Translations under genes and position numbers: made by a program
Assembly (NCBI GenBank): GCA_043803105.1
Contig: JAZDKJ010000006.1
Coordinates: 364,222 to 428,221 of the forward strand
Direction of reading: 5' to 3'
Source of the DNA: Candidatus Woesearchaeota archaeon
Lineage (GTDB): Archaea; Nanobdellota; Nanobdellia; Woesearchaeales; JAZDKJ01
Length of the DNA stretch: 64,000 bases
The notes under the pieces: generated by a model
What the model saw: the letters and a program-made list of their open reading frames with translations, nothing else
What the model was told of the DNA's origin: nothing
The model's database searches: none
Shown: one piece after another, positions 7,560 to 41,920 of the stretch
Numbering within the stretch: position 1 is the first letter of the stretch
Layout: each line of letters begins with the position of its first letter

Positions 7560-7563
7560 AAGC

Positions 7564-7632
7564 TTTTTTCCTTAGGAAAAAACCTTGGAAAATATGTTTT
7601 TGCCAAGGCAAAAACGCTGCCTTTAAGGCAGC
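7564..7632 (-). terminator. Three stable hairpins with T/A-rich flanks between the leader element and tRNA-Tyr
   Basis: Plus strand: CTTTTTTCC-TTA-GGAAAAAA at 7564-7582, GTTTTTGCC-AA-GGCAAAAAC at 7596-7615, and GCTGCC-TTTAA-GGCAGC at 7616-7632. Confidence 0.4.
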
Positions 7633-7636
7633 TAAA

Positions 7637-7680
7637 GTTGCGAGCTGACTTTTCAGCTCAGCTATTGAGCTACTCAGGGA
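7637..7680 (-). ncRNA. tRNA-Tyr leader element: copy of the tRNA-Tyr 5' end plus a conserved hairpin
   Basis: Minus strand CCCTGAGTAGCTCAATAGCT matches the tRNA-Tyr 5' end at 18 of 20 nt. It is followed by GAGCTGA-AAAG-TCAGCTC-GCAAC. A TATA box (TTTATAAAAAG, plus 7707-7717) lies ~30 nt upstream. Confidence 0.55.
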
Positions 7681-7777
7681 TAATTCAATGAATAACAAAC
7701 AAGGGTCTTTTTATAAACATTTCTTATCTCTGTGTGTGCTTCTTTCTTCGGAACGACTCAGAATTTTGCTATTGCTA

Positions 7778-8137
7778 TTAGTGTACAATTCTCATTTTTC
7801 CAGCCATGACTAAATTGTGCTCAATCTCTAGCTTGTTGAATCTTTTTTCCATCGCTAGGATCTTATCGACTTTTTGCTCTGTTTGCTCTACACCGTTCTT
7901 TATCTTACCTAATTTGTATGCTCCCCCGAGAATCGAAATGCCTCCTCCAAGATATGGTATCATCTCTACCCACACTGGAGAGCGCACAATTCCAAAAACC
8001 TTAAGCAGCGCCCACAGGAGTATTGCCAGTGCTCCTATGACAATCAGGGAATCCCAGAGGTCAAAACTTGCGTTGAAGAGTTTTTTTAGCTTTTGAATTG
8101 TCCTCATGCTGGCAGCAATAATAAAAAGGTCGTTCAT
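7778..8137 (-). CDS. small membrane protein (2 TM, coiled-coil C-terminus), hypothetical
   Basis: 119-aa ORF with a hydrophobic segment (LIVIGALAILLWALLKVFGIV), last gene of the surface-protein operon. Confidence 0.5.
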   Translation of the reverse strand: MNDLFIIAASMRTIQKLKKLFNASFDLWDSLIVIGALAILLWALLKVFGIVRSPVWVEMIPYLGGGISILGGAYKLGKIKNGVEQTEQKVDKILAMEKRFNKLEIEHNLVMAGKMRIVH

Positions 8138-8204
8138 AAACTTTTGTCTTCGATAAATCCAGATTGTATGAATGAGCCGTAAATCTTCCGAAAGTCACAA
8201 CATC

Positions 8205-10154
8205 TTATTTCTGCGGTTCGCTCGATGTCCAGTCCTGCTTGCACATGTTGTCGATTGCAGAGTATGCAAAGCTGCCCAGAGTATAGTCGAGAAGTTTCCA
8301 TGTCAAATCTCCTGCCAGGGCCTTGTTTGCCTGCTGTTGGGCTTCCCTCTCTGCTATTGCTTTTTGCTCGGCAGGGTCATTGTATGCTCCTGCAGTCTTC
8401 GCACTCAACACACTGGCGTATACTATTCCATCCGTACCGAGCACTGTTTTTTCCCCACTTAGTGCTATCCTTTCAGACCTGATTGGCCCACCCTCATCAA
8501 ATGTGTACTCTGTAACCATGGCCCCTGCTTGTGCAATATAGGTGCTTGATATTGCTCGTGTTGGAGGTGGAAAACTTTGTGGTGTACACACAGTGGGAGG
8601 AAATCCCTGCTTGACATATGCACCGTAAGGATACTCACTGTTAGGTTCTTGGTATTGGTAGTCCTGTTGTGCAAAATAGACTTGGGTGAGTGTAGGATCC
8701 TGCGCAGCTTGGCTGGCGCTTATGTCTATGATATTTATATCCGGATATATTGTGCTTTTCCAGCAGTTGCAGTTTGTATTGAAATGGTAAGAACCTTCTG
8801 ATGCTATGCTTGATATCTTCCCGTTATACCCGTTTTGGGTTAGGTCAGTTTGGAGTGTAAGATAGCTCATCCCTGATTTTAGGAGAGGGGTGTTGCCCCC
8901 AGCCACAATATAGTAACTGTATTTACCTTCCTTGTCAGTTGCAGATTGGCTATCAATTTTGCTTATTATTATCTGCCCCTTGTTCCCGTCAAAAACAACC
9001 CCTGCCTTCACATCATCAACCGTAACTGAAGGTTTGACTACCTGTCCGTTCTTCGCTACCCCATCATACATTTTGTCTCCATTCTTGTCAACCAATCTGT
9101 AATTATAGGGCACGGGTCTTCCAGACAACCTGTTCTTTATGTCCTCAAAGTGCAGGTCAGTGCATGTTGGTTCATTAAAGCTCGTTGACATCCAGTTCCA
9201 TGACTCTGTTACCTGTGATATCATTCCAGGAATGTTGGTGAGCTCCATCAATTTCAATACGCATTTTGGTATGGCTGCCTGCTTGATGATTTCTCCCAGC
9301 TGGCTTGCAAGGTATTTTGCCAGGATTGACATAAGTATCTTAGCCACAGTCTTTAGTATAGAACCTTTCCAGTACATGCACAGCGCTTCATCTAGTTGTT
9401 TCTCGCATGCCTCTGTTGATATTCCTGCGGTGCACGCCTGTTCGATGCAGCAATTATACACCTGGTAGATTGTCTTGAGCTTTCTTATGTTAAATAGTAT
9501 TGCAACTGGGCACAGGCAGTAAGTTGCAGTGTAGATGTTCTCATAAGGATTCAGGTGGAAATCTCCGATAGCCAGGTTTCCGTACCCTCCGCCTGTTGTT
9601 GTCTTTCCAACTCCAACCGTGTTGCTCAGGCTTTCAGAGTTCTGTCCTAGCACCGGCACGTTCTTCACTATTCCTCCGCATCCAAACTTTCCTGTGCACC
9701 AGCCGCAGCTTACAAGACAGCACAATCCCTGCACTACCGGCAATTTGTACACGCTAGACCATGCCTTAAACACTTTTTGCATTGCTATGCAAAGTTTGGT
9801 GCCAGTGAGTAGTCCAAGCAGGCAGCAGTCCCCTGCCTCGTCTCCTGAGAACCCTATTAAGCTTGATATTGCCGATAGCACGATGTCTATGGCGCTCATT
9901 ACAGTGCATATCATGAGCATTATTGACGCTACGCTCTCAAGCGTTCCTATTACTCCATTGTCAAGCGAGTCAGCTATGCCTGAGCTTTTCTTGTGCTTCT
10001 CAATGCACTGCTGTCCAGCCTCAAGGTCTGTTGTGCCAGTTTCCTCTGTTGCCTTACCAGTAACTGGATTTACCTCTGCAAATGCGATTGAAGTGCAAAA
10101 TGGGATGCTGATTATGAGAAAGATTAGGATTTTGGCTACTTGCTGTTTTATCAT
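8205..10154 (-). CDS. secreted cysteine-rich large protein (signal peptide plus one TM), hypothetical
   Basis: 649 aa. N-terminus MIKQQVAKILIFLIISIPFCTSIAFAEV is a signal peptide. Many Cys, CC and CxC motifs. Starts 2 nt after the upstream gene's stop. Confidence 0.6.
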   Translation of the reverse strand: MIKQQVAKILIFLIISIPFCTSIAFAEVNPVTGKATEETGTTDLEAGQQCIEKHKKSSGIADSLDNGVIGTLESVASIMLMICTVMSAIDIVLSAISSLIGFSGDEAGDCCLLGLLTGTKLCIAMQKVFKAWSSVYKLPVVQGLCCLVSCGWCTGKFGCGGIVKNVPVLGQNSESLSNTVGVGKTTTGGGYGNLAIGDFHLNPYENIYTATYCLCPVAILFNIRKLKTIYQVYNCCIEQACTAGISTEACEKQLDEALCMYWKGSILKTVAKILMSILAKYLASQLGEIIKQAAIPKCVLKLMELTNIPGMISQVTESWNWMSTSFNEPTCTDLHFEDIKNRLSGRPVPYNYRLVDKNGDKMYDGVAKNGQVVKPSVTVDDVKAGVVFDGNKGQIIISKIDSQSATDKEGKYSYYIVAGGNTPLLKSGMSYLTLQTDLTQNGYNGKISSIASEGSYHFNTNCNCWKSTIYPDINIIDISASQAAQDPTLTQVYFAQQDYQYQEPNSEYPYGAYVKQGFPPTVCTPQSFPPPTRAISSTYIAQAGAMVTEYTFDEGGPIRSERIALSGEKTVLGTDGIVYASVLSAKTAGAYNDPAEQKAIAEREAQQQANKALAGDLTWKLLDYTLGSFAYSAIDNMCKQDWTSSEPQK

Positions 10155-10156
10155 TT

Positions 10157-12328
10157 CTAACTTACCTCTGGCGCAACAAACTGTGAATAATCGTTAACTG
10201 TGTAATCTACCTGTTTTGTCTTGCCGTCGCAGTTATCATCGACAGTGATCTTTCCGCTTAGCCTGCTGCCATCAATGACTGTCTCAGTGATGCTGTTTAC
10301 CTCAAGGTTCTGGTCTGAGAGGAAATCCACCATGCAGTAGAATTTTATTTTGCTGCCCCTTAGGCTGGTTGCTTTCCATCCAAAGTTCCCGTTGCCAATT
10401 ATCCAAGGTCCTTCGTAGTTGGAATGCGTCAAGGGATTGTTGTCAAAGTCCACTGTCACTGTGTTGTCTCCTTCTTTATAGGTTGAGGGCTTTATGACCA
10501 CGTTGCCTTTGGCCAGCATTCCCACCCGATAGTTTCCGCTTCCTATTATCATGCTCTTCATTGTTGGGTATAGGACAGTAGGGTTTGCAGACGCCCCGTT
10601 TATTGATATTGTTATCTCGTCTTTTGGCCTTGGCTGGTAGCGTGTTTCCTGCAACATTTCTTCAGGTGTTTTTCCGCAGCTGCTTCGTAAATATCCATTT
10701 GTCAGATAATAGTTCTCCAGGAATTTTCTTGCAAGCACAAGCTCCACTTCAATGCTGTAATTCTTCAGTTTCTCCAGTTTGTATTCGCTTTTTACAGCAT
10801 CAACAATCGTGCTGTAACCTGCCTTCTGCAACTTAAGCTGGAGCCCTGCGCATTTCGGCAGCTTTAAGGAGGCTCTGCCGCTGGAGGCTGTCTCTCCTGC
10901 ATCGCATTCGTTGATTGTGTTGTTGCATTGGAATCTGACACCAACTCCAGGCAATAATCCTGTTTCATTCGTTGTGACTACACTAGCCTGCGTGCTTACG
11001 TTGTTGCAGTCAAAGACACTTTTCATGGTCTCGCTTCCGAAAAATGCTGTCAGGTTCACTTCGCTATATGGATTCTGTCCAGTGCACTGCCTGTTCTGGT
11101 TTCCGCACAGGAAGAGTTGCATCGGGAAATAAAACGAGAAGCCCTGTTTTTCCTGCACCAAATTACCAATAATCTTGGCAGAATCGCTGTCTGTGATTTT
11201 TATCACCACAGGATGTGTCAAGAAGTACTTGAACCTGTAATCATAAATGCAGAAGCTTGGGAGGAATGGTATGCTTGTCTGCGATTCCTTGTCCGGGCTA
11301 ATCACGTTGCCGCTTGTGGGTTTGATGTCAAATTTGTTATCTGATTGTGCAGGGTAACTGAATTCTACGCTTATTGAGCTAAGATTTTCGAAATAATTCC
11401 TGATAAAGCTGTCATAAACTCCCTGGACTGAAGCGTCGTTTGAAATCACTCTTTCAAACTTTGTTCCGGCCATCTTTAGGTATGGAAAATTTTTTGAAAG
11501 TATGCCTTCAAGATTTTCCTTGACTTCATCTTTCGTCCATGTTACGTATTTGCAATCTGTGCTTGAGTCAGAGAAGCTGAACGGCGGAAGGTCTTTTGCT
11601 CCCTTTTCTGCCCCGGTATAGCTGTACAGAGAAATCAGTGACTTTGCGTGGTCTTCAAGATAAGTGTCTGCAAACTCTCTTGTGACTAATTCCATAGCTA
11701 TCTCATGGATCAGCGCCAGGTTTACATCCACCTGATAATTGTAGTTGTCCACTTCATACTGTTTTTCGTTCTGTGTGATCTGGATTGGCCAGTGAAGATC
11801 AATTGTTGCCTGTTTGCCGAACCTCACTGTGGTGTTTATTGTTCCAGTCTTGATAACATAACTTTTTTTTCTGAAGACCTCAAAGTCCGTGCATCTCGGC
11901 AGGTTTTCTGTGATGTATCTAGCTAGCTCATTTTGCATGTAATCTGTTGAAGGTACAGAAATCGAATCTTCGGTGATCCAGTAAGGGACCTTGTTCTTTC
12001 CTGTGGCGTCAATAACCTGAATCATGCTCCCAGTTTTAACCACAGTCCTATCGCCGCTTATGCCTGTTGTTTGTAGCTCGGTAGGAATGTATATGAACCC
12101 CGCCTGAAGCCCAAGGATTTCTATTCCTGAATTTGCATAATCACTTAGACACTGTTCCACATATGTCTTAACCTGTTGAGCAGGCTCTGCAAGTTGTAAT
12201 GCCCTTACCTGTTCGACCTGGATTGGCTGCTCTGTTGTTCTTGCCCAGCTAAAGTAGAAGATTGCCGCAGCTATCAGCATGATTATTCCGATGATTATGA
12301 ATATGGTTATCTGTCCTCTTTTTTCCAT
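10157..12328 (-). CDS. large class-III signal peptide (archaeal type IV pilin-like) surface protein
   Basis: N-terminus MEKRGQITIFIIIGIIMLIAAAIFYF has a short basic n-region and an R-G|Q site followed by a hydrophobic helix, as in PibD/FlaK substrates. 723 aa. Confidence 0.5.
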   Translation of the reverse strand: MEKRGQITIFIIIGIIMLIAAAIFYFSWARTTEQPIQVEQVRALQLAEPAQQVKTYVEQCLSDYANSGIEILGLQAGFIYIPTELQTTGISGDRTVVKTGSMIQVIDATGKNKVPYWITEDSISVPSTDYMQNELARYITENLPRCTDFEVFRKKSYVIKTGTINTTVRFGKQATIDLHWPIQITQNEKQYEVDNYNYQVDVNLALIHEIAMELVTREFADTYLEDHAKSLISLYSYTGAEKGAKDLPPFSFSDSSTDCKYVTWTKDEVKENLEGILSKNFPYLKMAGTKFERVISNDASVQGVYDSFIRNYFENLSSISVEFSYPAQSDNKFDIKPTSGNVISPDKESQTSIPFLPSFCIYDYRFKYFLTHPVVIKITDSDSAKIIGNLVQEKQGFSFYFPMQLFLCGNQNRQCTGQNPYSEVNLTAFFGSETMKSVFDCNNVSTQASVVTTNETGLLPGVGVRFQCNNTINECDAGETASSGRASLKLPKCAGLQLKLQKAGYSTIVDAVKSEYKLEKLKNYSIEVELVLARKFLENYYLTNGYLRSSCGKTPEEMLQETRYQPRPKDEITISINGASANPTVLYPTMKSMIIGSGNYRVGMLAKGNVVIKPSTYKEGDNTVTVDFDNNPLTHSNYEGPWIIGNGNFGWKATSLRGSKIKFYCMVDFLSDQNLEVNSITETVIDGSRLSGKITVDDNCDGKTKQVDYTVNDYSQFVAPEVS

Positions 12329-16195: not shown

Positions 16196-19049
16196 TTCTT
16201 TGCTTGACCAGTTCTGATAACTCTTTCGGCCATTTTTCAATCTCAGATTTTTTCTTTCTTAAGAATTCAATAAATCCATCTTTAACTTCCCTTCCTTCTA
16301 TCATTTCTGCCAATTGTTCCTTCTCTGTTATTGAAAGCCCCTCGATGTTCCATGCTTGCATCTTAAGGCTGTCGATTTTGTCTTCTTTTTCTGCCTCAAG
16401 TTTTTCTTCCTGCTCTATCCAAAGCTCTTCATAGCTCTTGATTTTGTTCTCTGGCTGCTTCTTTCCCTGTTTCAAAGATATTTTTGCCAGTACCATCTCG
16501 TGCATTCTTTTCAGGAACTCCATCCTGTCCTCGATTTTCAACAGGTCTGTGTAGCCCTGCACTATGAGGTTGAAGGCGAACGGGCTTGGCACTGTTGTTG
16601 CGTATTGCTGGATCTTTATCTTGCCATCTTCGATTTGCTTTAGCACAATGCTTGCGCTTTTTTCGTCCATCAGGTCTTCAAGCACCTCTCTTCGTGCCTC
16701 TTCGAGTATCGGAAATCTTGGGTTTATCCTCCTTACAGCGCTTATAAGTATTGTGGATGATACTTGCTGTCTCCCCACCCTTTGCGTCCTTCCCTTATAT
16801 TGCCTTAGTATCATTAATGCCCTTGTTGCGCAGTGCCTAAACCTTCTTTTCAGTACCTCGCTCGTTTCTATTGCGTTTCTTAACACCAGGTCCAGCTTTT
16901 CTGATTTCAATAGCTCAAAGGCCTTCATCACATTGACCTTCTGATTGGTCATCAGGTAGAATCCATTGTCGTTGATTCCTACTGAAACATCCCTGTGGCT
17001 AACCCTTGATACTGCAAATCCTACCGCCCTTGATAGTGCGTCGTTTACCCTTCTCCCAAACAGGCTGTGCAGCAGGTAGTATGTTTGCTTGCCGTCGTTG
17101 TAGGTTTCCATGATTATTGACTTGTCTGTTGGTATTTCCAGGTACTCTGCCTGTTCTTTGAAATAATTGTATAATGCTTTCGCTGCTTTGCTGTCCACGT
17201 AAAGGTACTGGTTGATGAAGCCCATAACCTCTTCCTCGTTCTGCCTGGCTGAAAATTTCTCTTTGATTAATCTCCTGAATCTGCCTATTTCTAAAGCAAG
17301 GTCAAAGCTTAATGGCAGCATCTCTGAGAACCATGATGGTATTGTTGGCGGCCTATACACTGATGTTCTCACGTACGCAACCATGCCCTTTGCGTACAGG
17401 AACTCATATTTTTCCCCTCCCAAGACAAATACGTCTCCCTTTTTTAGCCTTTCAAGGAAAGCCTCGTCTATCTGTCCTATTGCCTGCTCACCTATCTTCA
17501 CTGTTATGTACATCTCGTCTGGTATCGTTCCTATGTTTGTCATGTAGATTACCCTGCCGAGCCTTCCTTTTTTCCCTATCATATTGCTTTCAGGGTCATA
17601 CCATATCTTTGCGTAGATGTGCCTGTCTTCGAGCGATGTGAACTTTCCCGCAAGGTATTGGAGTATATCGATGTAGTCCTTTCTTTGCAGGTCTTTGAAC
17701 GGGTAGCTCTGCTTGATTATTTTGAAAAGCTCGTCAACATTCCATTTCTGCTCTAAGGCAAAACCATCTATCTGCTGTGCAAGCACGTCAAGGCAGTTTG
17801 TTGGCAGGTGTATCTTGTCAATCTTTTTCTCTATTGCGCACTTTAGCAATACTGAGCATTCCACCAGGTCGTCCCTGTCAAGCACTATTATCCTTGCCTT
17901 GACCTTGTCGTGCAGTTTGTGTCCTGACCTTCCTGCTCTCTGAAGAAATCTTGCTACTGACTTTGGCGAGCCAAGGCAGATTACAAGGTCTATGTATCCT
18001 ATGTCTATGCCAAGCTCCAGGGAGGTGCTTGACACAATGACCTTGAGCTCTCCATTTCTTAGTCTGGTTTCTATGTCATGCCTGAGTGTTTTCGACAATG
18101 ACCCATGGTGCGCTCCTATGTTTGAGGTGTACTTTTGCGGCCACCTGTCCTTGAGATGGTCGATTACTCTCTCTGTTGCCGACCTTGTGTTTGTAAATAT
18201 GAGTGTTGTCCTATGGCTTTGCACCAGGTTGTCTATGAGCTCATACATTTTCTGGTGCATTACGCTGTGAGGCGTGCTTATCAGGTCTTCAACTGGTGAC
18301 ATTACTTTCAGGTCCATTTCCTTTAGGAATTGCACGTCTGCTATTTTGCAGTCTCTTGGTTTATCATCCTTGAAGCCTACCAGGAACAATGCAATCTCTT
18401 CTAATGGTGCGATTGTTGCGGAGAGGCCTATCCTTGTCATGTGCGGAGATAAGTAGTCAAGCCTTTCCAAAGACAATGATAAATGAACACCCCTCTTGTT
18501 CTCCGCTAACGCATGTATTTCGTCTACTACACACCACTCCACTGCCTTGAGGTGGTCCCTAAACTTAGGTGAGGTCAGCATGATGGCAAGGCTTTCAGGT
18601 GTTGTGATCAATATGTGCGGCGGCTTCCTTAGCATCTTTTGCTTTTCCGCTGTCGTTGTGTCTCCTGTCCTGACCCCTACTCTTATCCCAAGCTTTTTTC
18701 CTGCAGCCTCTTCCATTTCTTTCAAAGGTTCCACAAGGTTGTGCTGGATGTCGTTTCCGAGTGCCTTTAGCGGGCTCACGTAAACGCAGTAGATTTTATC
18801 CTGCAAAATTTCCTTTTGGGAGGAGTCTATTAGCTCGTTCAGAATCGATAGAAATGCTGTAAGTGTCTTTGTCGCTCCTGTCGGAGCGCTGACTAGGATG
18901 TTTGCCCTGGAGTGTATCTCCATCACCCCAAAGAGCTGCGGCAGTGAGAACTTCTCGAATTTCTTGAAGAACCATTCCTTAACGATTGGATTGAGGATTT
19001 GTTTCAGTTCTTCTTCAGTATTGGCTTTAACCTTATGCTCTATCATCAA
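16185..19049 (-). CDS. lhr: Lhr-like ATP-dependent helicase (large helicase-related protein)
   Basis: 954 aa with SF2 motifs (APTGATKT, VDEIH, SAT) and an Lhr-type C-terminal domain. Confidence 0.8.
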   Translation of the reverse strand: MMIEHKVKANTEEELKQILNPIVKEWFFKKFEKFSLPQLFGVMEIHSRANILVSAPTGATKTLTAFLSILNELIDSSQKEILQDKIYCVYVSPLKALGNDIQHNLVEPLKEMEEAAGKKLGIRVGVRTGDTTTAEKQKMLRKPPHILITTPESLAIMLTSPKFRDHLKAVEWCVVDEIHALAENKRGVHLSLSLERLDYLSPHMTRIGLSATIAPLEEIALFLVGFKDDKPRDCKIADVQFLKEMDLKVMSPVEDLISTPHSVMHQKMYELIDNLVQSHRTTLIFTNTRSATERVIDHLKDRWPQKYTSNIGAHHGSLSKTLRHDIETRLRNGELKVIVSSTSLELGIDIGYIDLVICLGSPKSVARFLQRAGRSGHKLHDKVKARIIVLDRDDLVECSVLLKCAIEKKIDKIHLPTNCLDVLAQQIDGFALEQKWNVDELFKIIKQSYPFKDLQRKDYIDILQYLAGKFTSLEDRHIYAKIWYDPESNMIGKKGRLGRVIYMTNIGTIPDEMYITVKIGEQAIGQIDEAFLERLKKGDVFVLGGEKYEFLYAKGMVAYVRTSVYRPPTIPSWFSEMLPLSFDLALEIGRFRRLIKEKFSARQNEEEVMGFINQYLYVDSKAAKALYNYFKEQAEYLEIPTDKSIIMETYNDGKQTYYLLHSLFGRRVNDALSRAVGFAVSRVSHRDVSVGINDNGFYLMTNQKVNVMKAFELLKSEKLDLVLRNAIETSEVLKRRFRHCATRALMILRQYKGRTQRVGRQQVSSTILISAVRRINPRFPILEEARREVLEDLMDEKSASIVLKQIEDGKIKIQQYATTVPSPFAFNLIVQGYTDLLKIEDRMEFLKRMHEMVLAKISLKQGKKQPENKIKSYEELWIEQEEKLEAEKEDKIDSLKMQAWNIEGLSITEKEQLAEMIEGREVKDGFIEFLRKKKSEIEKWPKELSELVKQRINH

Positions 19050-19158
19050 ATACTCAAGAAATTCTGTTGTTTAAAAAGGTTGGTTTCAATTGGTAATCCA
19101 CAAACTGACTCAAAGTTATGAAAACTTATATATACTGATCATTTGATATAACAAAACC

Positions 19159-19410
19159 ATGAAGAAGGCAATAATCATTTCAATAATGCTGTTGGTAATG
19201 CTGGTTGCCGGATGCAAAGAAAAAACATTAGAAACTGGACCTGAAACACCTTGCACAACTGACAATGACTGCTGGTGTAGGTCTTATACCGGCCTAGGTT
19301 TTATAGCAGGGAAGGGTCCAAGCAGATGTTGCACAGAAGAACTACAAGAAAATATGAACCAAAAAATCTGTCCTGCTGTCAACAAATGCAAGCGATGTTT
19401 ATATCAATAA
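19159..19410 (+). CDS. small cysteine-rich lipoprotein or secreted protein
   Basis: MKKAIIISIMLLVMLVAGC lipobox, and 9 Cys in 83 aa. Confidence 0.45.
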   Translation: MKKAIIISIMLLVMLVAGCKEKTLETGPETPCTTDNDCWCRSYTGLGFIAGKGPSRCCTEELQENMNQKICPAVNKCKRCLYQ

Positions 19411-19429
19411 TGCTCCTTGGCATCACTTT

Positions 19430-20392
19430 TCACACCAACTCACTTTGCAGTATATTTAACAGATACCCAGTAAAGATTATTGCCAGAGTTGTTATTCCAA
19501 AAAATATTCCTATCAATTTTAGATTCATAGCCCTTCTAAGCATGATTGCTTCAGGCAGGCTTAAGGCAGCTACCGCCATCATGAAAGCCAATGCAGTCCC
19601 CAAAGGGATTCCTTTTTGGAAGAGCACCACTGCAATCGGGACGATTGCTGCACAGCTGCCATACATTGGAACTCCTATCAACGTGGCTATTGGTACTGAA
19701 AAAATGCCTCCCTTGCTTATCAATCCTTGAATCAATTCAGAAGGCACATAGTTGTGGATTGCCGCTCCGACCCCTACTCCAACCAGCACCCATATCCATA
19801 ATTTCTTGGCAATTGATACGGATTCATTGAACCCGAATTGCACTCTTTTTTTGATAGAATCATAATTAATTTCTTTGATATGTTTAGAGTTTGTAGATAT
19901 AAGATCTTTAACAAGATGTTTGTCCAATTTCATGCCGCCAAGTATTAATCCGGATACAACTCCTATCAGAATGCCGCTTAATACATATGCCATAGTGATT
20001 TTCCATCCAAAGAACCCGAGCATTAGGACTACCAAATATTCGTTTATCAGTGGGGAAGTTATTAAGAAGGAAAAAGTCACTCCTAAAGGGATTCCTGCCT
20101 CAAGAAAACTTATGAAAATGGGAATTGAAGAGCATGAACAGAAAGGTGTTATAGCCCCAAACAATGAAGCCAGTACGTTTCCGATGCCTTTTTTCTTTCC
20201 GCTTAGCCATTGCTTGACTTTATTTTGGGGAATGTATGTTCTGATGAAGCCTATTGCAAGGATCATGAAGAACAGAAGGAAGAGTATTTTGATAGAATCA
20301 TAAACAAAATAATTAATGGATTGGATCAGCCTTGAAGAAGAATCAAGTCCTAAAAGGTTGTACAGGATCCAATCAACAATCACTTGCAGCAT
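19430..20392 (-). CDS. arsP: organoarsenical efflux permease ArsP (COG0701 permease)
   Basis: Conserved TPFCSCS motif ([14 protein letters not shown]), eight TM helices, next to an ArsR. Confidence 0.7.
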
Positions 20393-20493
20393 GAGTCATC
20401 GCAGCAGCATTTTTTCTCTTTGGATTTCTTTTTGAGTTTCTTGTCCATTTTATCAATAATTTTTCCAATAAAATTCTTCTTCTTTTCGGTCAT
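20380..20493 (-). CDS. small Lys-rich peptide with C-terminal CCCDDSCC, translationally coupled to arsP
   Basis: [37 protein letters not shown] (37 aa). Overlaps the arsP start by 13 nt. Not in the ORF track. Confidence 0.4.
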
Positions 20494-20502
20494 GTTTATC
20501 AC

Positions 20503-20838
20503 CTAGCATACAGTTTTCGTGGTTTTATTCTTGCCAATTCCCAGCAATTTGCAGATAGAGTATACCCTCTTGTCCTTAATTGAGTAGAAAATATTCCTGC
20601 CTTTTCTTCTGGATTTCAGGATATTTTCTTTTTCCAGGTCATTCAAGTGTGTTGAGACTGTTGATTGCGCTCTCCCTGTAACCGAAATAAACTCGCATGA
20701 GCACACTTCGCCCTTAAGGAGATGCCTTATTATCTTGAGTTTTGTCTCATCACCCAAGATTCTCAAGAATACAGCACTTTCCTTTAGCATAAATATCGAT
20801 AAATGTAGATATATAAATAATTTTCGGATGGACAGCAC
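20503..20838 (-). CDS. arsR: ArsR/SmtB-family metal-sensing transcriptional regulator
   Basis: LRILGDETKLKIIRHLLKGEVCSCEF...QSTVSTHL, with a CxC metal site in helix α3. The true start may be the internal Met at 20790. Confidence 0.75.
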   Translation of the reverse strand: MLSIRKLFIYLHLSIFMLKESAVFLRILGDETKLKIIRHLLKGEVCSCEFISVTGRAQSTVSTHLNDLEKENILKSRRKGRNIFYSIKDKRVYSICKLLGIGKNKTTKTVC

Positions 20839-20939
20839 TTATGTTCCCTCTCAGGTTCCTTTTATAAACTGAAGTCGCCCCGAATGTAAGAACGGACAGA
20901 ACAATAATCTTTATATATCACTTTAGAGTTACTATTGGA

Positions 20940-21191
20940 ATGCAGCACCAAGTTAACGTGTTTTATGATCCGAAAACAATGGATATAGGTTTGTTGCAGA
21001 AGTTTTACTCAGCGTACGGTCTCGCTTCCCCGTCAGAAGACGCGTTAAGATTTCCTCTGTTTCGCCGCAACGGCGATGGATTGGAAACAGCCCTGGCAAA
21101 ATATGAGTTCTTGACAAAGGCTCAAGCTATGGAATTGATAAGTGCTGTTAGTGATTTCAAGAATATCCAAACAGAGATGTCTGACCTTTAG
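20940..21191 (+). CDS. hypothetical protein
   Basis: 83-aa ORF with no recognisable motif. Confidence 0.3.
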   Translation: MQHQVNVFYDPKTMDIGLLQKFYSAYGLASPSEDALRFPLFRRNGDGLETALAKYEFLTKAQAMELISAVSDFKNIQTEMSDL

Positions 21192-29637: not shown

Positions 29638-29672
29638 GGGGCTGCGGGGGAGCTGCGAAGTCAGCTCGCACC
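29638..29672 (+). ncRNA. tRNA-Pro(UGG) leader element: copy of the tRNA 5' end and flank, plus a conserved hairpin
   Basis: GGGGCTGCGGGGGAGCT matches the tRNA-Pro 5' end at 15 of 17 nt. The repeat extends about 17 nt into the 5' flank, about 29 of 36 identical overall. It is followed by GAGCTG-CGAAGT-CAGCTC-GCACC. Confidence 0.55.
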
Positions 29673-29710
29673 TTCGTGGGACATAAAGTCCCCCTGACAT
29701 CACAATCAAT

Positions 29711-29827
29711 GGGGCTGTGGGGTAGCTTGGTCTAGCCTATCTGGTTTGGGGCAATGCAAAAAACCAGATGACCCCGGTTCGAAAGTTTTATAAAAGGCTG
29801 ATTAACTCGAAAATCCGGGCAGCCCCA
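29711..29827 (+). tRNA. tRNA-Pro(UGG), with a 12-nt canonical intron and a T-loop insertion of about 30 nt
   Basis: GGGGCTG-TG-GGGT-AGCTTGGTCTA-GCCT-A-TCTGG-TTTGGG[GCAATGCAAAAA]A-CCAGA-TGA-CCCGG-T-loop plus insertion-CCGGG-CAGCCCC-A. Confidence 0.6.
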
Positions 29828-29977
29828 CTCATGTTCGTGGTTGGTCTTCCCAATGGGAAGACGCACCCTTTAGGGTGCCGATGCAGTCAACAGGCATTTC
29901 TGTTGATCCGGGCCGCCCCCACTCAGTTTTGTTGGCTAAAAACATGGGAAAACGCTGCACAAAGGGCAATTCGCAAA

Positions 29978-36889: not shown

Positions 36890-37201
36890 ATGGCGATTTC
36901 TTACAAGCAAAGATGCATGCGGTGCAAAAAGAATATGGTCATGGTGACTTCAAGGACTTTTTTCCCAGTCTGTTACGATTGTGAAAAGAATGATTTGCAT
37001 GGTCTGGTCAAGAACCCTAAGATGAAAAAGCTCTTTAATATTCCAGAATCCTTCTATGTAGAGAATACTTTCCTGCGCTCAATAAAGATCAATTACCTGA
37101 AGTTTGGCAGCCTCTCAGAAAAGCAGATTGCAAGCTTCAAGAAGACTGTGGAAGAGTTAAAGAAAAAACCCGTAAGCCTCATACCCCCCAGACAGGGTTA
37201 G
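36890..37201 (+). CDS. zinc-finger protein, hypothetical
   Basis: CMRCKK...CYDC four-Cys finger. Confidence 0.4.
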   Translation: MAISYKQRCMRCKKNMVMVTSRTFFPVCYDCEKNDLHGLVKNPKMKKLFNIPESFYVENTFLRSIKINYLKFGSLSEKQIASFKKTVEELKKKPVSLIPPRQG

Positions 37202-38942
37202 ATTTTCTCATTATTATGGCTATCTCTTTCAAGACCTCAGTCTCTTCACGGCCAAGAAGCTTCCTGTACTCCTTTAGTTTTCGGAAATCATCCTCAGGCA
37301 CCGAGCTGTAAAGTGTGTCTCCTTCTTTTATCTGTCTTCCAACAGTGAGGTGCTCAAGGCTCACCGCAACCTGCTTTCCCCGCTCAGCTTTCTCAAGGTT
37401 TTCCTGCTCTGCTTGTATGCTTTTTATCCTGCTAATCTCCTTGCCTTGCGCGTTCATTACAGGCATTCCTGTTCTTATTGTCCCTGCCTCCACCTCTACT
37501 CCTACTACTGCAGGATTGTTTTGCCTGAAAACATAGCCTTTCATGAGTTTGAATTTTGCCGGCCTGACCACCTTGTCCAGTTCTCCCAGCTCTTGTTTCT
37601 TTGACATCTCCTGTTTCCATGCCTCAAGGTCTTCCAGCAGTTTATAGATTATGTCGTGGACTATCACCTTCACATGGTCCAGGCACAACCCTGATTCGTC
37701 CTTGACATTGAACCCGAGCACCACTGCCATCAGCGGATCTTTTTCATAGTTGCTTTCCGCTTCCATAAGGTCTTTTCTCGTTATCGGCCCAACCCCTGCC
37801 TTTCTTATCTCGACTCCGCCGTCCTTCAGGAGCTTGACCATAGCCTCCATGCTGCCAAGCGTGTCTGCCTTTACTATTATTCCTTCCTTGTTTGTTTCAA
37901 TTAGTGCCTCGCTTATCTCGCGCATTATTTCTCTGCTGGTTTTCTCCAGGTTCTGCTGGCTTGTTGCCCTGATTGGCATTCCTGCTATCGCTGTCTCAAT
38001 GTCCGGTGCAGCAATCTTTACCCCTGTCGCTGCAACTGCTTTTCTGACCTTTGTGTATTTTGCCTTTTTGTCTCGCATCTCTTCAAGTGGCAATGGTTCA
38101 AGAAGAGCCTTAACTTTTGTTATGATGGGTTTCTCTATGCCCCCAATTACTATGATATCATTTACCTTGAGGATCCCATCGTATATGATCACATCGATTG
38201 TTGTACCAAAACCACGTTCCTCCTTCACCTCGAGGATTGTTCCCTTGGCTGGTCCGCTTGCATCAATTTTTAGGTTGGTTTCAAGGTATCTTTGAGCTAG
38301 GCCTGTTAGCATTACGAGGAGTTCTGGTATGCCCTCTCCTGTTTTTGCAGATACTGGGACGATGATTATTTGTTTTGTAAAGTCCTCTACTCTGTCATAT
38401 CTTTCAGAATTAAGGCCGAGCTTGCTTAATTCTCCCAGTATCTGATAGACTCTCTTGTCAAGCTGCTCTTGCACTGAACTGCTCTGCTTGCTTATGTTCT
38501 CCAGCAAATGCTCTGCCTTATGCTGCCAGCCTGCAATTAAGTCTATCTTGTTCGCAGCGACAATAAATGGTGTCTTGCTATGCTTGAGTATCTCTATTGC
38601 CTCGACTGTCTGTGGCTTGAATCCCTCGTTGACATCGATAACCACAATTGCGATGTCAGCTAGGCTGCCTCCTCTCTTTCTTAGGCTTGTGAATGCAGCA
38701 TGCCCTGGAGTGTCAATGAAAAGAAGGCCTGGTATCGTGAATTTTGTGTTGAGCGCTTCCAGCAATGGGCCGCATATCTTCTTTATGACTTCAAGCGGTA
38801 TTATTGAAGCGCCTATTGCCTGTGTTATCCTTCCCGCTTCTGTCTCAACTATGGCAGTGCCCCTGATCTTGTCTAGCAGGCTTGATTTTCCATGGTCCAC
38901 ATGCCCAAGCACTGTGCATATTGGGCTTCTTATCTCTGGCAT
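37179..38942 (-). CDS. infB: translation initiation factor aIF-2 (IF2/eIF5B)
   Basis: VLGHVDHGKSSLLD G1 motif, DTPGH, NKID. 587 aa. Confidence 0.92.
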   Translation of the reverse strand: MPEIRSPICTVLGHVDHGKSSLLDKIRGTAIVETEAGRITQAIGASIIPLEVIKKICGPLLEALNTKFTIPGLLFIDTPGHAAFTSLRKRGGSLADIAIVVIDVNEGFKPQTVEAIEILKHSKTPFIVAANKIDLIAGWQHKAEHLLENISKQSSSVQEQLDKRVYQILGELSKLGLNSERYDRVEDFTKQIIIVPVSAKTGEGIPELLVMLTGLAQRYLETNLKIDASGPAKGTILEVKEERGFGTTIDVIIYDGILKVNDIIVIGGIEKPIITKVKALLEPLPLEEMRDKKAKYTKVRKAVAATGVKIAAPDIETAIAGMPIRATSQQNLEKTSREIMREISEALIETNKEGIIVKADTLGSMEAMVKLLKDGGVEIRKAGVGPITRKDLMEAESNYEKDPLMAVVLGFNVKDESGLCLDHVKVIVHDIIYKLLEDLEAWKQEMSKKQELGELDKVVRPAKFKLMKGYVFRQNNPAVVGVEVEAGTIRTGMPVMNAQGKEISRIKSIQAEQENLEKAERGKQVAVSLEHLTVGRQIKEGDTLYSSVPEDDFRKLKEYRKLLGREETEVLKEIAIIMRKSNPVWGV

Positions 38943-39094
38943 ATTCTCTGCATATTTTGGGCTGTATTTAAAGGTTTTCAGGATACAAGGAAAGTTAGGA
39001 TTTCATGTCCTTTTGTAATTTCTTCAGAAGGCAATCCACACCTTGTAATATATTATCTTCTTGAGGTTTTCAATATCGATAAATTTTGCGCCCG

Positions 39095-39400
39095 GTCAGG
39101 GATTTTCACTTGATGAGATTTGAACTGTCAGAAATTCACTGAATTTCTGAGCATGCTCGGAAACATAGTTTCCGACACCTGGAGACCTGTGATGGTCAAT
39201 TGCTTTTCAGGCAACCGCGATACCCGATTACGCTAGCCCGGCCTCGCACATTTCTAAATTGACCTGAACCTTAATATGTTCAATTGAGAATTTTCCGTAA
39301 GTTCTGCGACAAAACCGAGCAAAATCTTATATACCAGAATGCTTACAAACTTTATGACCTGCGATTTAATTACCTGATTACGCGAGCCCTTTTTATATAG
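39095..39400 (-). repeat. tRNA-derived fragments: two direct copies of GGGCT(C/A)GCGTAATC(A/G)GGTA, the second continuing as a tRNA-Phe(GAA)-like 5' half
   Basis: Minus strand, copy 1 begins at 39388 immediately after ACTATATAAAAA. Copy 2 at about 39247 folds as GCCGGGC-TA-GCGT-AATCGGGTA-TCGC-G-GTTGC-CTGAAAA-GCAAT. No matching 3' acceptor strand was found. Confidence 0.35.
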
Positions 39401-39452
39401 TATTTTCTGTAGATTTGACCAATGGCTCAAGTAGCCTTGGCCAGAAATAAAA

Positions 39453-39654
39453 TGGGGCTGCTGGGATTTCCATGCTTCTAGGACGGTCTTTTGGCATCAG
39501 CCAAAAGCCTTTTCCCAGGTTTTTGCATATTGCAAAAAGCTGTTTGGACCCAGATTAGGAGGTTTTCCGCTGAAAACCTTAGGTCAAATGCCCCGAACCT
39601 CCAGTGATAGTTTCTCGAAGAGTTTCTCTCTTCTCCAAGTTACACTACAGCCCC
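39453..39654 (-). tRNA. tRNA-Pro(CGG), heavily interrupted (D-loop, canonical 37/38, and T-arm/variable insertions; 202 nt)
   Basis: GGGGCTG-TA-GTGT-AACTTGG[about 25 nt]ACTATCAC-T-GGAGG-TTCGGG[28 nt]A-CCTCC-TAAT...CTGGG...[insertion]...CCCAG-CAGCCCC-A. All four stems pair. Exact intron boundaries in the 3' half are uncertain. Confidence 0.5.
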
Positions 39655-39811
39655 ATAGGTTGAACTGGAAAGCCACACTGTTGTATGACCTTCCTATAAC
39701 TGCTAAACAGCAGGGTGTTAAAAAGGTTGCGATGGAACGTAACGATGTGATATATTAGAATTTTATGTGCCTCTTACCCTTCAGCAATGTGCAGATTCTG
39801 CTAATTAAATT

Positions 39812-39825
39812 TATATATAAAGAAC
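39812..39825 (+). promoter_or_regulatory. TATA box for tyrS, about 30 nt upstream of the ATG (leaderless or short-leader mRNA)
   Basis: ATTTATATATAAAG, centred about 35 nt upstream of the ATG at 39856. Confidence 0.45.
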
Positions 39826-39855
39826 TGTTTTATTGTTGCAATCGCTTGCATCACT

Positions 39856-40989
39856 ATGGATAACAGAGCAAAATTTGAACTTATAACGAGAAATTTAGAA
39901 GAAGTACTAACACCTGCAGATTTAATGAAACTCATTGAAAATGATGAGCCTTTAAAGCATTATATTGGTTTTGAAATAAGTGGTAAGGTGCATCTTGGAA
40001 CTGGACTTATGTGTATGTCCAAAATTAAAGACTTCATGGATGCAGGTGCGGATGTTTCTGTGTTTCTTGCTGACTGGCATAGTTGGATTAATGATAAACT
40101 TGGTGGAGACAGAGAAGTTATCAAAAAAATTGCCGTCGGATATTTCAAAGAAGCGATGAAGGCTAGCCTTCTTTGTCTTGGTGGTAATCCTGAAAAAATA
40201 AGATTTGTACTTGGTACAGAACTTTATCACAATAATGACGATTATTGGGCAACCATGATTGATGTAAGTAAAAATACGACTCTAGGCAGGATGACTCGGA
40301 GCATTACAATCCTTGGAAGAAAAGAAGGGGAGGGAGTTGATTTTGCAAAATTGATCTATCCTGCAATGCAGGTTTCAGATATTTTTGTTCAGAAATTGAA
40401 CATACCTCATGCAGGAATTGATCAAAGGAAAGCGCAAGTTATTGCAAGAGAAGTTGCTTTAAAAATGAAAGTAAGTCAAATTACTGATAAAGAGGGTAAT
40501 AAAATTAAACCCGTTGCCCTGCATCATCATCTGTTACTAGGTCTTGGCAAACCCCCGGTATGGCCTGTTCCTCAAGATAAATTACAGGATTTATGGTCAT
40601 CAATGAAGATGAGCAAGTCCAAGCCGGACACTTGTGTTTTTGTTCACGATAGTCCTGATGAAATTAAAAGAAAGATTGCAAAGGCATTCTGCCCTGAAGG
40701 TGAAACTGTGTTCAATCCAGTACTTGATTGGGCTAAATATTTATTGTTCAGAGAGACGACTGATGAACTTATAGTAAAAAGGCCTGAAAAATTCGGTGGA
40801 ACTGTTATATATACAACTTACGAAAAACTTGAAAAAGATTTTGCAGACAAAAAAGTTCATCCAATGGACCTTAAAGATTCAGTTGCTGAAAGTTTAATTA
40901 AACTACTTGAACCTGCAAGAATCCATTTTGAAAAACCTGAAATCAAAAAGACGTTGGATCAGCTTAACAAGCTCATAACCACAAGGTGA
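39856..40989 (+). CDS. tyrS: tyrosyl-tRNA synthetase (archaeal type), in an AT-rich island
   Basis: KMSKS motif (KMSKSKPDT) and HYIGFEISG. The C-terminus, KRPEKFGG...HPMDLKDSVAESLIKLLEP, aligns with M. jannaschii TyrRS. GC is visibly lower than the flanking genes. Confidence 0.85.
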   Translation: MDNRAKFELITRNLEEVLTPADLMKLIENDEPLKHYIGFEISGKVHLGTGLMCMSKIKDFMDAGADVSVFLADWHSWINDKLGGDREVIKKIAVGYFKEAMKASLLCLGGNPEKIRFVLGTELYHNNDDYWATMIDVSKNTTLGRMTRSITILGRKEGEGVDFAKLIYPAMQVSDIFVQKLNIPHAGIDQRKAQVIAREVALKMKVSQITDKEGNKIKPVALHHHLLLGLGKPPVWPVPQDKLQDLWSSMKMSKSKPDTCVFVHDSPDEIKRKIAKAFCPEGETVFNPVLDWAKYLLFRETTDELIVKRPEKFGGTVIYTTYEKLEKDFADKKVHPMDLKDSVAESLIKLLEPARIHFEKPEIKKTLDQLNKLITTR

Positions 40990-41079
40990 TTTTATTCCTT
41001 TTTGTATGTTTATTCTAGATAGTTAATATTAGAATACAAAATTTCAGGATTAGCCTAAAATGTTTTATGCTTCTTTTCG

Positions 41080-41183
41080 AATTCCGGTCGGACGCATTCT
41101 GGTTTCATCCTCAAGCGTAAGTGATAGTTGCTTCAGGCAACCGAGCGAACTGGTTGGCGCTGGCCAAGTTACACTACAGCCCC
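41080..41183 (-). pseudogene. truncated tRNA-like copy sharing the tRNA-Pro(CGG) 5' exon segments
   Basis: GGGGCTGTAGTGTAACTTGG[35 nt]ACTATCAC, then a different anticodon-arm-like hairpin (TACGC-TTGAGGA...GCGTC). No 3' acceptor strand before the tyrS stop. Confidence 0.4.
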
Positions 41184-41290
41184 GTTGATTGTTATTGTTT
41201 CGCGAAGCTCACAAGAAACCTGATAGTTTCTTGGGAGTCCCAAAAAACTTCAAGTTTTTTGTGACGAAAGGCGACTGAAAGGAGTGTAAA

Positions 41291-41330
41291 GGTGCCAGCT
41301 GACTTCTCAGCTGAGTAGCACTACAGCCCC
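41291..41330 (-). ncRNA. third copy of the leader element: tRNA 5'-end copy plus conserved hairpin
   Basis: GGGGCTGTAGTG-CTACT-CAGCTG-AGAAGT-CAGCTG-GCACC. An AT-rich box (AAATTTTTTAAG) sits about 30 nt upstream. It is followed by the AAAAAAC-TTCAA-GTTTTTT and GAAAC-TATCAG-GTTTC hairpins, then the tRNA-like copy at 41183. Confidence 0.5.
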
Positions 41331-41374
41331 AATTACTCAAACCAATTCGGTCGATTGCTTAAAAAATTTGTGCT

Positions 41375-41920
41375 TTGCCAAGCTTTTTAAGGGTTTTAGA
41401 TACTCCGTCCTGCATGGAGAGGGCACCACAGCAAAAACCTAGCCGTGAGTTGTTGATAGAAAAATTCCTCCAGGACAACCAGTTTAATCTCGAAGATGTG
41501 ATATCCAAGGACGAGATTTTCCAAAGCGCGAATGACCTTGCTTCAGCTATATACAAGAAGAGACCATCATACATAACCTTCAAGGATTATAATTTAGGTA
41601 TAACAAGCAGGTTTCCACAGACACCAGAATTTGAGGTCATGATGCTTTACCAGGTCCACGAGACTGCTTTGAAGTTCAAGCAGCAAGGATACAACGAACT
41701 TAGCTGGAACCAGCTTAAATCAGCATACCTAAAAGTCCACTTACAATCAAGGCATGACGCTGCTGGACGCCATGCCAGGTACAACTCACATTTTCCAAAA
41801 GCCCCAAAAGAGTTTGTTAGAGGCAAACATCCTGTGCACAGCATGCTGCTTACCTTGGACAGCATGGCTGTAGATATACTCCTCCATTATGCCACTTTGC
41901 GAATATACAAGAAAAGATAG
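41375..41920 (+). CDS. hypothetical protein
   Basis: 181-aa ORF. The true start may be the internal Met. Confidence 0.35.
   Translation: MPSFLRVLDTPSCMERAPQQKPSRELLIEKFLQDNQFNLEDVISKDEIFQSANDLASAIYKKRPSYITFKDYNLGITSRFPQTPEFEVMMLYQVHETALKFKQQGYNELSWNQLKSAYLKVHLQSRHDAAGRHARYNSHFPKAPKEFVRGKHPVHSMLLTLDSMAVDILLHYATLRIYKKR

Follow-up and report, generated by a model that had tools for sequence, protein, structure and literature searches.

A compositionally anomalous tyrosyl-tRNA synthetase gene at an intron-rich proline tRNA locus in a Woesearchaeota archaeon

The stretch analysed here, referred to as the window, comprises 64,000 nucleotides of contig JAZDKJ010000006.1, from a metagenome-assembled genome (MAG) of a Woesearchaeota archaeon, and harbors a tyrS gene, encoding a tyrosyl-tRNA synthetase (TyrRS), that stands out from its neighbours in base composition and lies among proline tRNA genes and tRNA fragments. 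The gene occupies positions 39856-40989 of the plus strand and consists of an uninterrupted open reading frame (ORF) of 377 amino acids (aa). It matched the NCBIfam model NF006330 (PRK08560) with 421.5 bits, against a cut-off of 220, residues 1-365 aligning with positions 1-335 of the 342-position model, and both class I motifs were intact, namely HLG, within ...GKVHLGTG..., and KMSKS, within ...MKMSKSKP.... By family score and motifs alike, the predicted product is an archaeal/eukaryal-type TyrRS (class Ic). To the left of tyrS, the minus strand carries a tRNA-Pro(CGG) gene (39453-39654) and, beyond a damaged tRNA-Phe-like gene, the aIF5B/IF-2 gene (37179-38942; PRK04004, 817 bits), a native flanking gene that served as host marker. 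To the right, also on the minus strand, lies a truncated Pro-type tRNA gene (41045-41183), hereafter fragment #2.

The original prediction described tyrS as lower in GC than the neighbouring genes, and this was borne out. Its GC content was 0.363 and its GC content at third codon positions (GC3) was 0.270, whereas the 62 ORFs of the window averaged 0.441±0.024 and 0.480±0.053, respectively; tyrS presented the lowest GC3 of them all, with a z-score of about -4, beyond the variance of the window. The first and second codon positions (GC1 and GC2) were ordinary, so that the shift affects synonymous sites, is of a mutational kind and does not reflect protein constraint. Moreover, a 150-nt GC profile revealed a sharply bounded low-GC block at ~39740-41075, with values of 0.28-0.42 within and 0.42-0.49 outside. 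The AT-rich DNA at 39762-41025 (~1.27 kb), which would correspond to an inserted cassette, includes tyrS, an A/T-rich upstream region with a TATA-like AAATTTATATATAAAG at 39807-39822, and a T-rich 3′ region. As a control set, 80 related tyrS loci were gathered from metagenomes, 68 of them with enough flanking sequence for a GC comparison. Across these 68 loci, tyrS tracked genome GC over a range of 0.30-0.64, and the difference between gene GC and flank GC was +0.010±0.026, with a minimum of -0.068. The window tyrS, at -0.079, fell below every one of them, indicating that the anomaly is specific to this genome and not to tyrS in general. Synonymous sites and non-coding flanks of tyrS are both shifted, as expected for DNA from a lower-GC mutational regime.

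These values bear on the possibility that tyrS is native and vertically inherited, having been relocated within the genome or kept at low GC3 by a gene-specific constraint, while the relatives lost or moved their copies. Such a history would agree with a protein of the TyrRS type typical for the phylum, with the absence of a mobility gene nearby, and with a neighbour-joining (NJ) tree that weakly groups the window TyrRS with sequences from higher-GC contigs. However, an internal move would not alter GC3 by four standard deviations, tyrS follows its flanks in the 68 related genomes, the normal GC1 and GC2 leave a purely synonymous shift, and the non-coding flanks are AT-rich as well. A vertical origin is, on this balance, rather improbable. 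A second low-GC stretch was observed at 19000-21000 (0.37-0.38), where the ORF at 19430-20392 (minus strand; GC 0.391, GC3 0.402) marks the next-lowest region of the window after tyrS.

Relatives of the host were sought through aIF5B, whose closest matches shared 73, 72, 70, 69 and 68% identity before a plateau at 60-65%. The two closest relatives (72-73%) are represented by L054, an 856-kb JGI contig (Ga0373628_0000002), and by L055, a Logan contig (SRR12594517). Around 20 kb of the window (26-45 kb) was collinear with both, with protein identities of 36-81%, and the shared order ran from eRF1 through tRNA-Pro(UGG), L37ae, prefoldin, UPF0147, MscS and DRG onward to aIF5B, two HIT genes and NFACT. 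In both L054 and L055, tyrS was absent from this locus, so that the island is missing from the same place in two genomes that are otherwise collinear with the window.

The tRNA-Pro(CGG) gene that borders tyrS was retained in both relatives, beside other cargo. Around this tRNA gene (7714-9937), L054 carries ORFs of 157 and 411 aa, with GC3 values of 0.37 and 0.46 versus 0.56-0.68 in the neighbouring genes, whereas L055 carries a 219-aa ORF and a P-type ATPase gene, its contig ending exactly at the boundary of the tRNA leader. The presence of different cargo beside the same tRNA-Pro(CGG) in collinear relatives thus points to a cargo-swapping hotspot. The 411-aa protein of L054 combined Sigma70_r4 and RNA-polymerase alpha-CTD domains, an odd pairing for an archaeon.

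An assembly chimera, in which a low-GC fragment from a co-occurring DPANN genome had been joined to the contig at shared tRNA-like k-mers, would produce a similar picture. The source is a MAG, tRNA exons are conserved between organisms, and the L055 contig breaks at the same boundary. Nevertheless, this explanation needs two precise joins that place one complete gene, with its promoter and terminator, between host segments syntenic with relatives, and the joins do not lie within the conserved tRNA exons. An artefact of this kind is considered extremely doubtful.

All sequence features listed in the original prediction were found at the locus. These included a repeat, GGGGCTGTAGTG, reported on the minus strand at 39654, as the start of an intact multi-intron tRNA-Pro(CGG), and at 41183, as the start of a truncated copy with a different anticodon arm and no 3′ half; both starts were confirmed, the second copy having another anticodon arm and lacking the 3′ acceptor strand, and a third copy, at 41330, had been overlooked. 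Three matches contrast with 0.14 expected, and none of 100 shuffles reached three; each of the copies is followed by AACTATCA.

The functional-looking tRNA-Pro(CGG) gene is composed of four exons (39654-39635, 39610-39592, 39563-39543 and 39466-39453), interrupted by introns of 24 nt in the D-loop (20/21), 28 nt at 37/38 and 76 nt in the T-loop (59/60). ARAGORN did not detect the unspliced DNA and called the hand-spliced 74-mer as tRNA-Pro(cgg). Bulge-helix-bulge (BHB) geometry was present at all three junctions, with three or four of four pairs in the central helix and 3-5 bp in the outer helix; as modelled, this is a multi-intron BHB tRNA gene whose transcript is predicted to be spliced. A blind BHB scan of the flanks was too noisy, true introns scoring no better than many false pairs, and BHB scoring was used only to check the hand models. 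The leader and promoter region of the gene (39655-39735, minus strand; CATCGCAACCTTTTTAACACCCTGCTG...) shares invariant blocks with L054 and L055 and is native, lying on the host side of the island boundary. In L054, the exons of the orthologue were near-identical, with one T-loop base differing, and the leader of ~80 nt was conserved, while the introns differed; L055 likewise presented the leader and the same exons with different introns. L054 also contains an 18-nt Pro 5′ fragment ~820 nt upstream, at a place equivalent to that of fragment #2 and the element preceding it (X2, described below). Being present in the tyrS-less L054, the Pro gene and the Pro fragment upstream of it are both older than tyrS at this site.

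A recurring intron and leader motif, formed by two A/U-rich hairpins around AAC(C/G)UGGGAAAA(A/G)G, was observed within the T-loop intron of tRNA-Pro(CGG) (39520-39490, minus strand). In L055, it occurs in the 37/38 and 59/60 introns of tRNA-Pro(CGG) (L055:160-330) and in the leader of tRNA-Pro(UGG) (L055:13330-13290, minus strand).

Fragment #2 was characterised by sequence, BHB geometry and alignment with the two intact Pro tRNAs. Its 5′ exon and D-arm are identical to those of tRNA-Pro(CGG), with a 36-nt intron at the same D-loop position and a further 12-nt intron at 37/38, BHB geometry fitting both. In contrast, its anticodon stem differs from that of tRNA-Pro(CGG), and the loop, UUGAGGU, holds the anticodon GAG, one change away from GGG. 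The start of its T-loop intron resembles that of tRNA-Pro(UGG), its T-stem is degenerate, and of the 3′ T-arm only AAUCC is left before the AT-rich DNA, with no acceptor 3′ strand; no 3′ piece or exon matching it was found within the 64-kb window. From these sequence relationships, we read #2 as the decayed, 3′-truncated remnant of a Pro isoacceptor gene that was probably tRNA-Pro(GGG) originally. That the 5′ ends are identical over 20 nt would then result from the genes being paralogous Pro isoacceptors and from X elements duplicating the adjacent tRNA end. An exact 12-nt match (TTCAGGCAACCG, plus strand) was also noticed between the D-loop intron of #2 (41132-41143) and the anticodon arm of the tRNA-Phe-like gene (39206-39217), which hints at exchange between introns and tRNA bodies.

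As an alternative to decay, #2 could represent the 5′ piece of a split, trans-spliced tRNA, as in Nanoarchaeum equitans, with its 3′ piece elsewhere in the genome. A GAG anticodon on a Pro-type body lies outside the identity rules of both prolyl-tRNA synthetase (ProRS) and leucyl-tRNA synthetase (LeuRS), which counts against this reading. Also unfavourable are the degenerate 5′ strand of the T-stem relative to both intact Pro tRNAs, a break inside the 3′ T-stem, which is not a known split position, the absence of a GC-rich complementary leader after #2, and the absence of a 3′ partner within the 64 kb. The DPANN host, the BHB geometry kept by both introns, the upstream element with a TATA-like box, and the incomplete tRNA sets reported for such genomes (PMC5829648; bioRxiv 10.64898/2026.05.13.725050) would be consistent with a split gene. 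On the whole, this interpretation of #2 is very unlikely, and the decayed isoacceptor gene is the preferred one.

At the left end of the island, the host-like leader ends near 39736 and the AT-rich block comes next, the cassette limit lying, by alignment, just past the leader conserved with L054; at the right end, the block abuts the position from which the 3′ T-stem and acceptor of #2 are missing. Two copies of a 10-nt direct repeat, ATATTAGAAT, were found on the plus strand at 39752-39761 and 41026-41035. This repeat is AT-rich, of borderline significance, and brackets the block; it is possibly a target duplication or a crossover site, a lead but not a proof.

It was originally proposed that recombination or integration at a tRNA locus had delivered or replaced tyrS. 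In its specific form, following the model of the Caldiarchaeum tRNA-Thr locus, a mobile element carrying tyrS would have integrated site-specifically into tRNA-Pro, the two GGGGCTGTAGTGTAACTTGG...CTATCAC copies would correspond to attL/attR-type sites, and the integrase would have been lost later. The layout is indeed that of Caldiarchaeum (PMC3293823), with a 5′ tRNA fragment lying 1.5 kb upstream of a complete tRNA that shares its 5′ end, and foreign-looking DNA in between; #2 stops within its 3′ T-arm precisely at the start of the AT-rich DNA, and the 10-nt direct repeat encloses the block. However, past nucleotide 27 the two copies differ fully in anticodon stem, variable loop, T-arm and introns, which makes them different genes and not the halves of one target. 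The tRNA-Pro(CGG) and its ~80-nt leader have orthologues in the tyrS-less L054, which also has the upstream Pro 5′ fragment, and equivalent 5′-end copies exist at tRNA-Pro(UGG) and tRNA-Tyr, far from tyrS. No att-type direct repeat derived from a target tRNA was found, the tRNA-like repeats being 5′ ends of different genes, older than tyrS. As the original prediction had stated, no integrase was left: the neighbouring ORFs matched no integrase, transposase, recombinase or other mobility family (NCBIfam, Pfam), and tyrS is the sole gene of the island. Site-specific integration is, in this form, unlikely. The foreign composition, the absence in relatives and the hotspot support the proposal in part, whereas its repeats do not mark the integration, in view of the L054 orthology and of X elements at unrelated loci.

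The element termed X accounts for the third GGGGCTGTAGTG copy, which heads X2 (41184-41330, minus strand), directly upstream of #2. X2 is composed of a 12-nt copy of the Pro 5′ end (41330-41319), the X core AGCTGAGAAGTCAGCTGGCACC (~41312-41290), a hairpin and a T6 run. The core, of 24 nt, is almost invariant (AGCTGAAAAGTCAGCTGGCACCTT / AGCUGAAAAGUCAGCUGGCACCUU) and forms a 6-bp hairpin with an AAAG/GAAG loop, after which comes a variable hairpin. With a compensatory stem change, it recurs upstream of two other tRNA genes of the window. The first of these loci, on the plus strand and unlinked to tyrS, has the same anatomy, with X1 at 29638-29710, tRNA-Pro(UGG), interrupted by two introns, at 29711-29827, and a 3′-end copy at 29905-29921. 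The second occupies 7433-7680 of the minus strand, with X3 at ~7680-7560 and tRNA-Tyr(GUA) at 7559-7433, the latter with a 54-nt intron. In each case, the core follows a near-copy of the 5′ end belonging to that very tRNA plus a few flanking bases; X3, for instance, copies nucleotides 1-25 of tRNA-Tyr with two mismatches before entering the core. The occurrence of such 5′-end copies at tRNA loci far from tyrS indicates a general feature of the genome, unrelated to tyrS.

A pattern scan of GTDB recovered the X core in 48 loci, ~38 of them in MAGs of Woesearchaeota/Nanoarchaeota or in a few contigs labelled Methanosarcinales, and a relaxed search yielded 45 archaeal copies. The sequence upstream, which abuts the core within ±2 nt in most copies, was repeated 27-164 nt downstream. 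The repeated blocks, of 12-63 nt, usually correspond to the end of a tRNA gene, whichever its strand, and in some cases extend to sequence outside the tRNA. X was also found inside tRNA genes: in L054, the core lies within the T-loop intron of tRNA-Pro(CGG) (L054:8504), and removal of the segment led ARAGORN to call tRNA-Pro; in L047, tRNA-Glu is recovered only once the D-arm segment containing the core is removed. In MAG JACQXV01, X is part of a multicopy repeat of ~210 bp resembling a miniature inverted-repeat transposable element (MITE), with inverted termini of ~30 nt and often at contig ends. No transposase, TnpB or recombinase stood beside the multicopy X copies, the adjacent ORFs being MCM, endonuclease V, PAC2 or without family.

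Several identities for X were tried and rejected. A guide RNA of the TnpB/IscB type or an IS200/IS605 end was ruled out by the lack of any such ORF nearby, and a known ribozyme or non-coding RNA by the lack of an Rfam 15 match (E of 1-10 or less) for the window copies and six loci. The model in which X and the partial copy form the real 5′ exon, the second copy being intronic, would require complementarity at the intron end, which is instead a same-sense copy; the non-canonical bases carried by upstream copies (U8C in X1, G18A in X3) also count against it. No description of X was found in Rfam or in the literature searched. Tentatively, X could be an undescribed small mobile module of Woesearchaeota that colonises tRNA genes, being a BHB intron when inside them (the 5′ splice site abutting the core), leaving tRNA-end duplications of 12-63 nt at gene edges, in either orientation, and having undergone MITE-like expansion in one genome. 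If true, the tRNA fragments at this locus would be live footprints of how archaeal tRNA introns and fragments come about, and the tRNA-Pro site of tyrS would be one breakpoint kept open by that process. X offers a searchable handle on the origin and spread of archaeal tRNA introns and gene fragments, so far studied mainly in Thermoproteales and Caldiarchaeum.

The remaining tRNA sequences of the window follow the same trend. A tRNA-Phe(GAA)-like gene, heavily disrupted or a pseudogene, occupies 39088-39242 of the minus strand; its 5′ two-thirds are canonical, but it has a poor T-arm, two acceptor mismatches and G73. It scored 22.3 bits against the Rfam tRNA model in a permissive scan, under the gathering score of 29, and the ARAGORN call of tRNA-Phe(gaa) needs a 78-nt deletion, after which the T-arm is still poor; enumeration of two deletions gave no ARAGORN model. 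The two tRNA-like GGGCTNGCGTAATCNGGTA copies that had been noted here are present at 39221-39239 and 39371-39389, 89% identical; the second, a 19-nt partial copy of the 5′ end on the minus strand, lies 150 nt upstream of the gene's own and abuts a TATA-like box. At tRNA-Pro(UGG), a copy of the tRNA 3′ end (ATCCGGGC.GCCCC.A) was observed ~80-110 nt past the gene, in the window (29905-29921, plus strand) and in L055 (12870-12855, minus strand), L054 being without it; thus, in this clade, duplicates of tRNA ends occur both before and after the gene. A nested outer tRNA-Pro(GGG) made from X1 and this downstream copy around tRNA-Pro(UGG) was also considered, and neither a D-arm, an anticodon arm nor a T-arm could be built.

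Default ARAGORN reported no tRNA in the 64 kb and Rfam only one, the permissive Rfam scan adding just the weak Phe-like match. Four of the five tRNA genes or remnants of the window were missed by default finders, which are blind here because these genes carry several introns (two or three) or are decayed. The locus thus illustrates why the tRNA sets of DPANN genomes look incomplete, in line with earlier work on tRNA sets that are incomplete or hard to detect in DPANN owing to intron-rich genes (PMC5829648) and with incomplete sets described for such genomes (bioRxiv 10.64898/2026.05.13.725050). The only tRNA detected by Rfam was tRNA-Tyr(GUA) (7433-7559, minus strand), whose 54-nt intron is canonical and whose C1-G72 pair is the archaeal one. 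This tRNA, the cognate substrate for the putatively acquired TyrRS, is located 32 kb away from tyrS, with an X element upstream. Apart from tRNAs, a sub-threshold Rfam match to a C/D-box small RNA (SNORD29, 31.4 bits versus a gathering score of 48, E=0.03) was observed at 11905-11968 (plus strand), which may correspond to an archaeal C/D small RNA.

Regarding the TyrRS itself, the window protein is 60-73% identical to hundreds of TyrRS from DPANN and Asgard archaea, with no gradient of closer relatives. A search with the Asgard-type L122 showed identities of ~70% for this TyrRS type across DPANN and Asgard archaea (labelled Loki-, Hel-, Hod- and Sigynarchaeota; P0068, P0077, P0243-P0252). Such a flat identity is unusual for phyla so distant and, as far as sequence similarity can tell, fits widespread gene transfer; repeated lateral transfer of this TyrRS type in DPANN and others has been reported (PMC5370408). 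The nearest TyrRS (72%) came from contigs of ~30% GC. The HIT-family protein beside tyrS on these contigs shared 28-35% identity with the window HITs, versus 57-65% for those of L054, the HITs having been matched by family and not as proven orthologues. AT-shifted tyrS genes beside a tRNA were also found elsewhere: in L076 (2600-4400; gene minus flank GC of -0.068), next to tRNA-Arg(CCU), and in L060 (2735-4131; -0.041), next to a divergent tRNA-Pro(UGG) 193 nt from tyrS in an L37ae/prefoldin/UPF0147 neighbourhood. There was no general enrichment of tRNAs beside tyrS, the 8 of 82 loci with an adjacent tRNA being close to the rate for random genes as estimated from typical gene and tRNA counts. 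In two low-GC relatives, a locally GC-rich intergenic region of ~450 nt with many hairpins was observed upstream of tyrS (L004:5552-6001 and L001:2577-3026); at the gathering threshold, Rfam gave no match for it, and it may represent a disrupted tRNA or a structured RNA that has escaped annotation.

Considering these results altogether, a single-gene horizontal acquisition of tyrS, as a segment of ~1.3 kb, into a pre-existing unstable tRNA-Pro locus is the explanation we favour, with a probability of roughly 0.6. The host is a DPANN archaeon (Woesearchaeota/Nanoarchaeota) whose tRNA genes are rich in BHB introns. In this scenario, an AT-rich cassette of ~1.3 kb with a working TyrRS gene, from a lower-GC archaeon with the same DPANN/Asgard TyrRS type, would have landed between two tandem proline tRNA genes, at a site prone to recombination and cargo swapping, where an A/T-rich promoter of its own would drive tyrS on the opposite strand to the tRNAs. 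The 3′ end of #2 is lost exactly where the AT-rich DNA starts, which suggests truncation by the insertion, and the native tyrS was probably displaced by the acquisition. Composition, gene identity, intron models, synteny and the distribution of X are shown by the analysis, while the horizontal origin, the direction of transfer, the truncation of #2 and the displacement are what we infer.

The tRNA scaffolding, on the other hand, is native, consisting of tandem Pro isoacceptor genes, one of them decayed, together with the X element and other 5′-end duplications typical of the clade. The native pieces are tRNA-Pro(CGG) with its leader, #2, the X copy upstream of #2, and the damaged tRNA-Phe-like gene with its upstream 5′ copy. 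As these tRNA-like 5′ ends are explained by paralogy and X duplication, they were not created by the integration of tyrS.

Some observations weigh against an acquisition. The NJ tree of 80 TyrRS, with bootstraps, was star-like, the window sequence having a long branch and an unstable sister group, at best at 24% and formed by sequences from higher-GC contigs. The closest sampled TyrRS was only 72% identical, with no nearer donor, and the little amelioration of the gene sits uneasily with the length of its protein branch. A TyrRS from the L054 organism was not among the best 120 protein matches or the best 80 loci, and this is the sole basis for incongruence between TyrRS and host, which is suggested, not demonstrated, by the sequence comparisons. 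Furthermore, the chance of a repeat of at least 10 nt in such flanks was 0.047 by shuffling and 21/640 empirically (0.03-0.05), and no mobility gene accompanies tyrS.

TyrRS is encoded by a single-copy, essential translation gene. Its recent swap in a reduced DPANN genome would offer a clean example, in nature, of xenologous displacement, one in which the insertion site is defined and relatives with a syntenic empty site are at hand for comparison. The nearest precedent in terms of the gene is the TyrRS transfer described in 2017 (PMC5370408), with which it shares the TyrRS type, the single-gene unit, the host-foreign composition and the star-like family at ~70% identity even between Asgard and DPANN. 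In contrast to that case, the transfer here would have occurred within or near the phylum, as deduced from composition and synteny instead of a resolved tree, and no donor is named.

As to layout, the closest described parallel is the tRNA-Thr(GGU) locus of Caldiarchaeum subterraneum, in which Sugahara et al. (2012, PMC3293823) found a mobile element of 1.8 kb together with a 5′ tRNA fragment and an intron-bearing tRNA. Both loci place compositionally foreign DNA between a 5′ fragment and a multi-intron tRNA with the same 5′ end, 1.5 kb downstream. Unlike Caldiarchaeum, the window carries tyrS in place of a recombinase, no evidence of a multicopy state was found, the defining recombinase and a true target duplication were not found, the fragment and the complete tRNA belong to distinct isoacceptor genes, and the arrangement predates tyrS, as it occurs in L054. 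The locus also resembles tRNA-associated genomic islands, in which the same tRNA-adjacent site holds differing cargo in collinear genomes, the cargo being AT-shifted here in two of the three; it departs from them in lacking an integrase and an att repeat of the tRNA 3′ end, and in its very small, single-gene cargo.

Finally, the tRNA genes of the window can be set beside the multiple-intron, split and permuted tRNA genes of Thermoproteales, Nanoarchaeum and ARMAN and the tRNA intron transposition described for them (PMC4090602, PMC4033280), as well as the corresponding trend in DPANN (PMC5829648). They have in common non-canonical introns at 20/21 and 59/60 besides 37/38, the BHB geometry, and related introns at different positions and in different tRNAs, as seen for the X core in the T-loop of L054 and the D-arm of L047. 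In the Woesearchaeota, by contrast, what is shared is a module with an invariant core of 24 nt, which also occurs outside tRNAs, in either orientation, with duplications of 12-63 nt of neighbouring sequence and as a MITE-like repeat.

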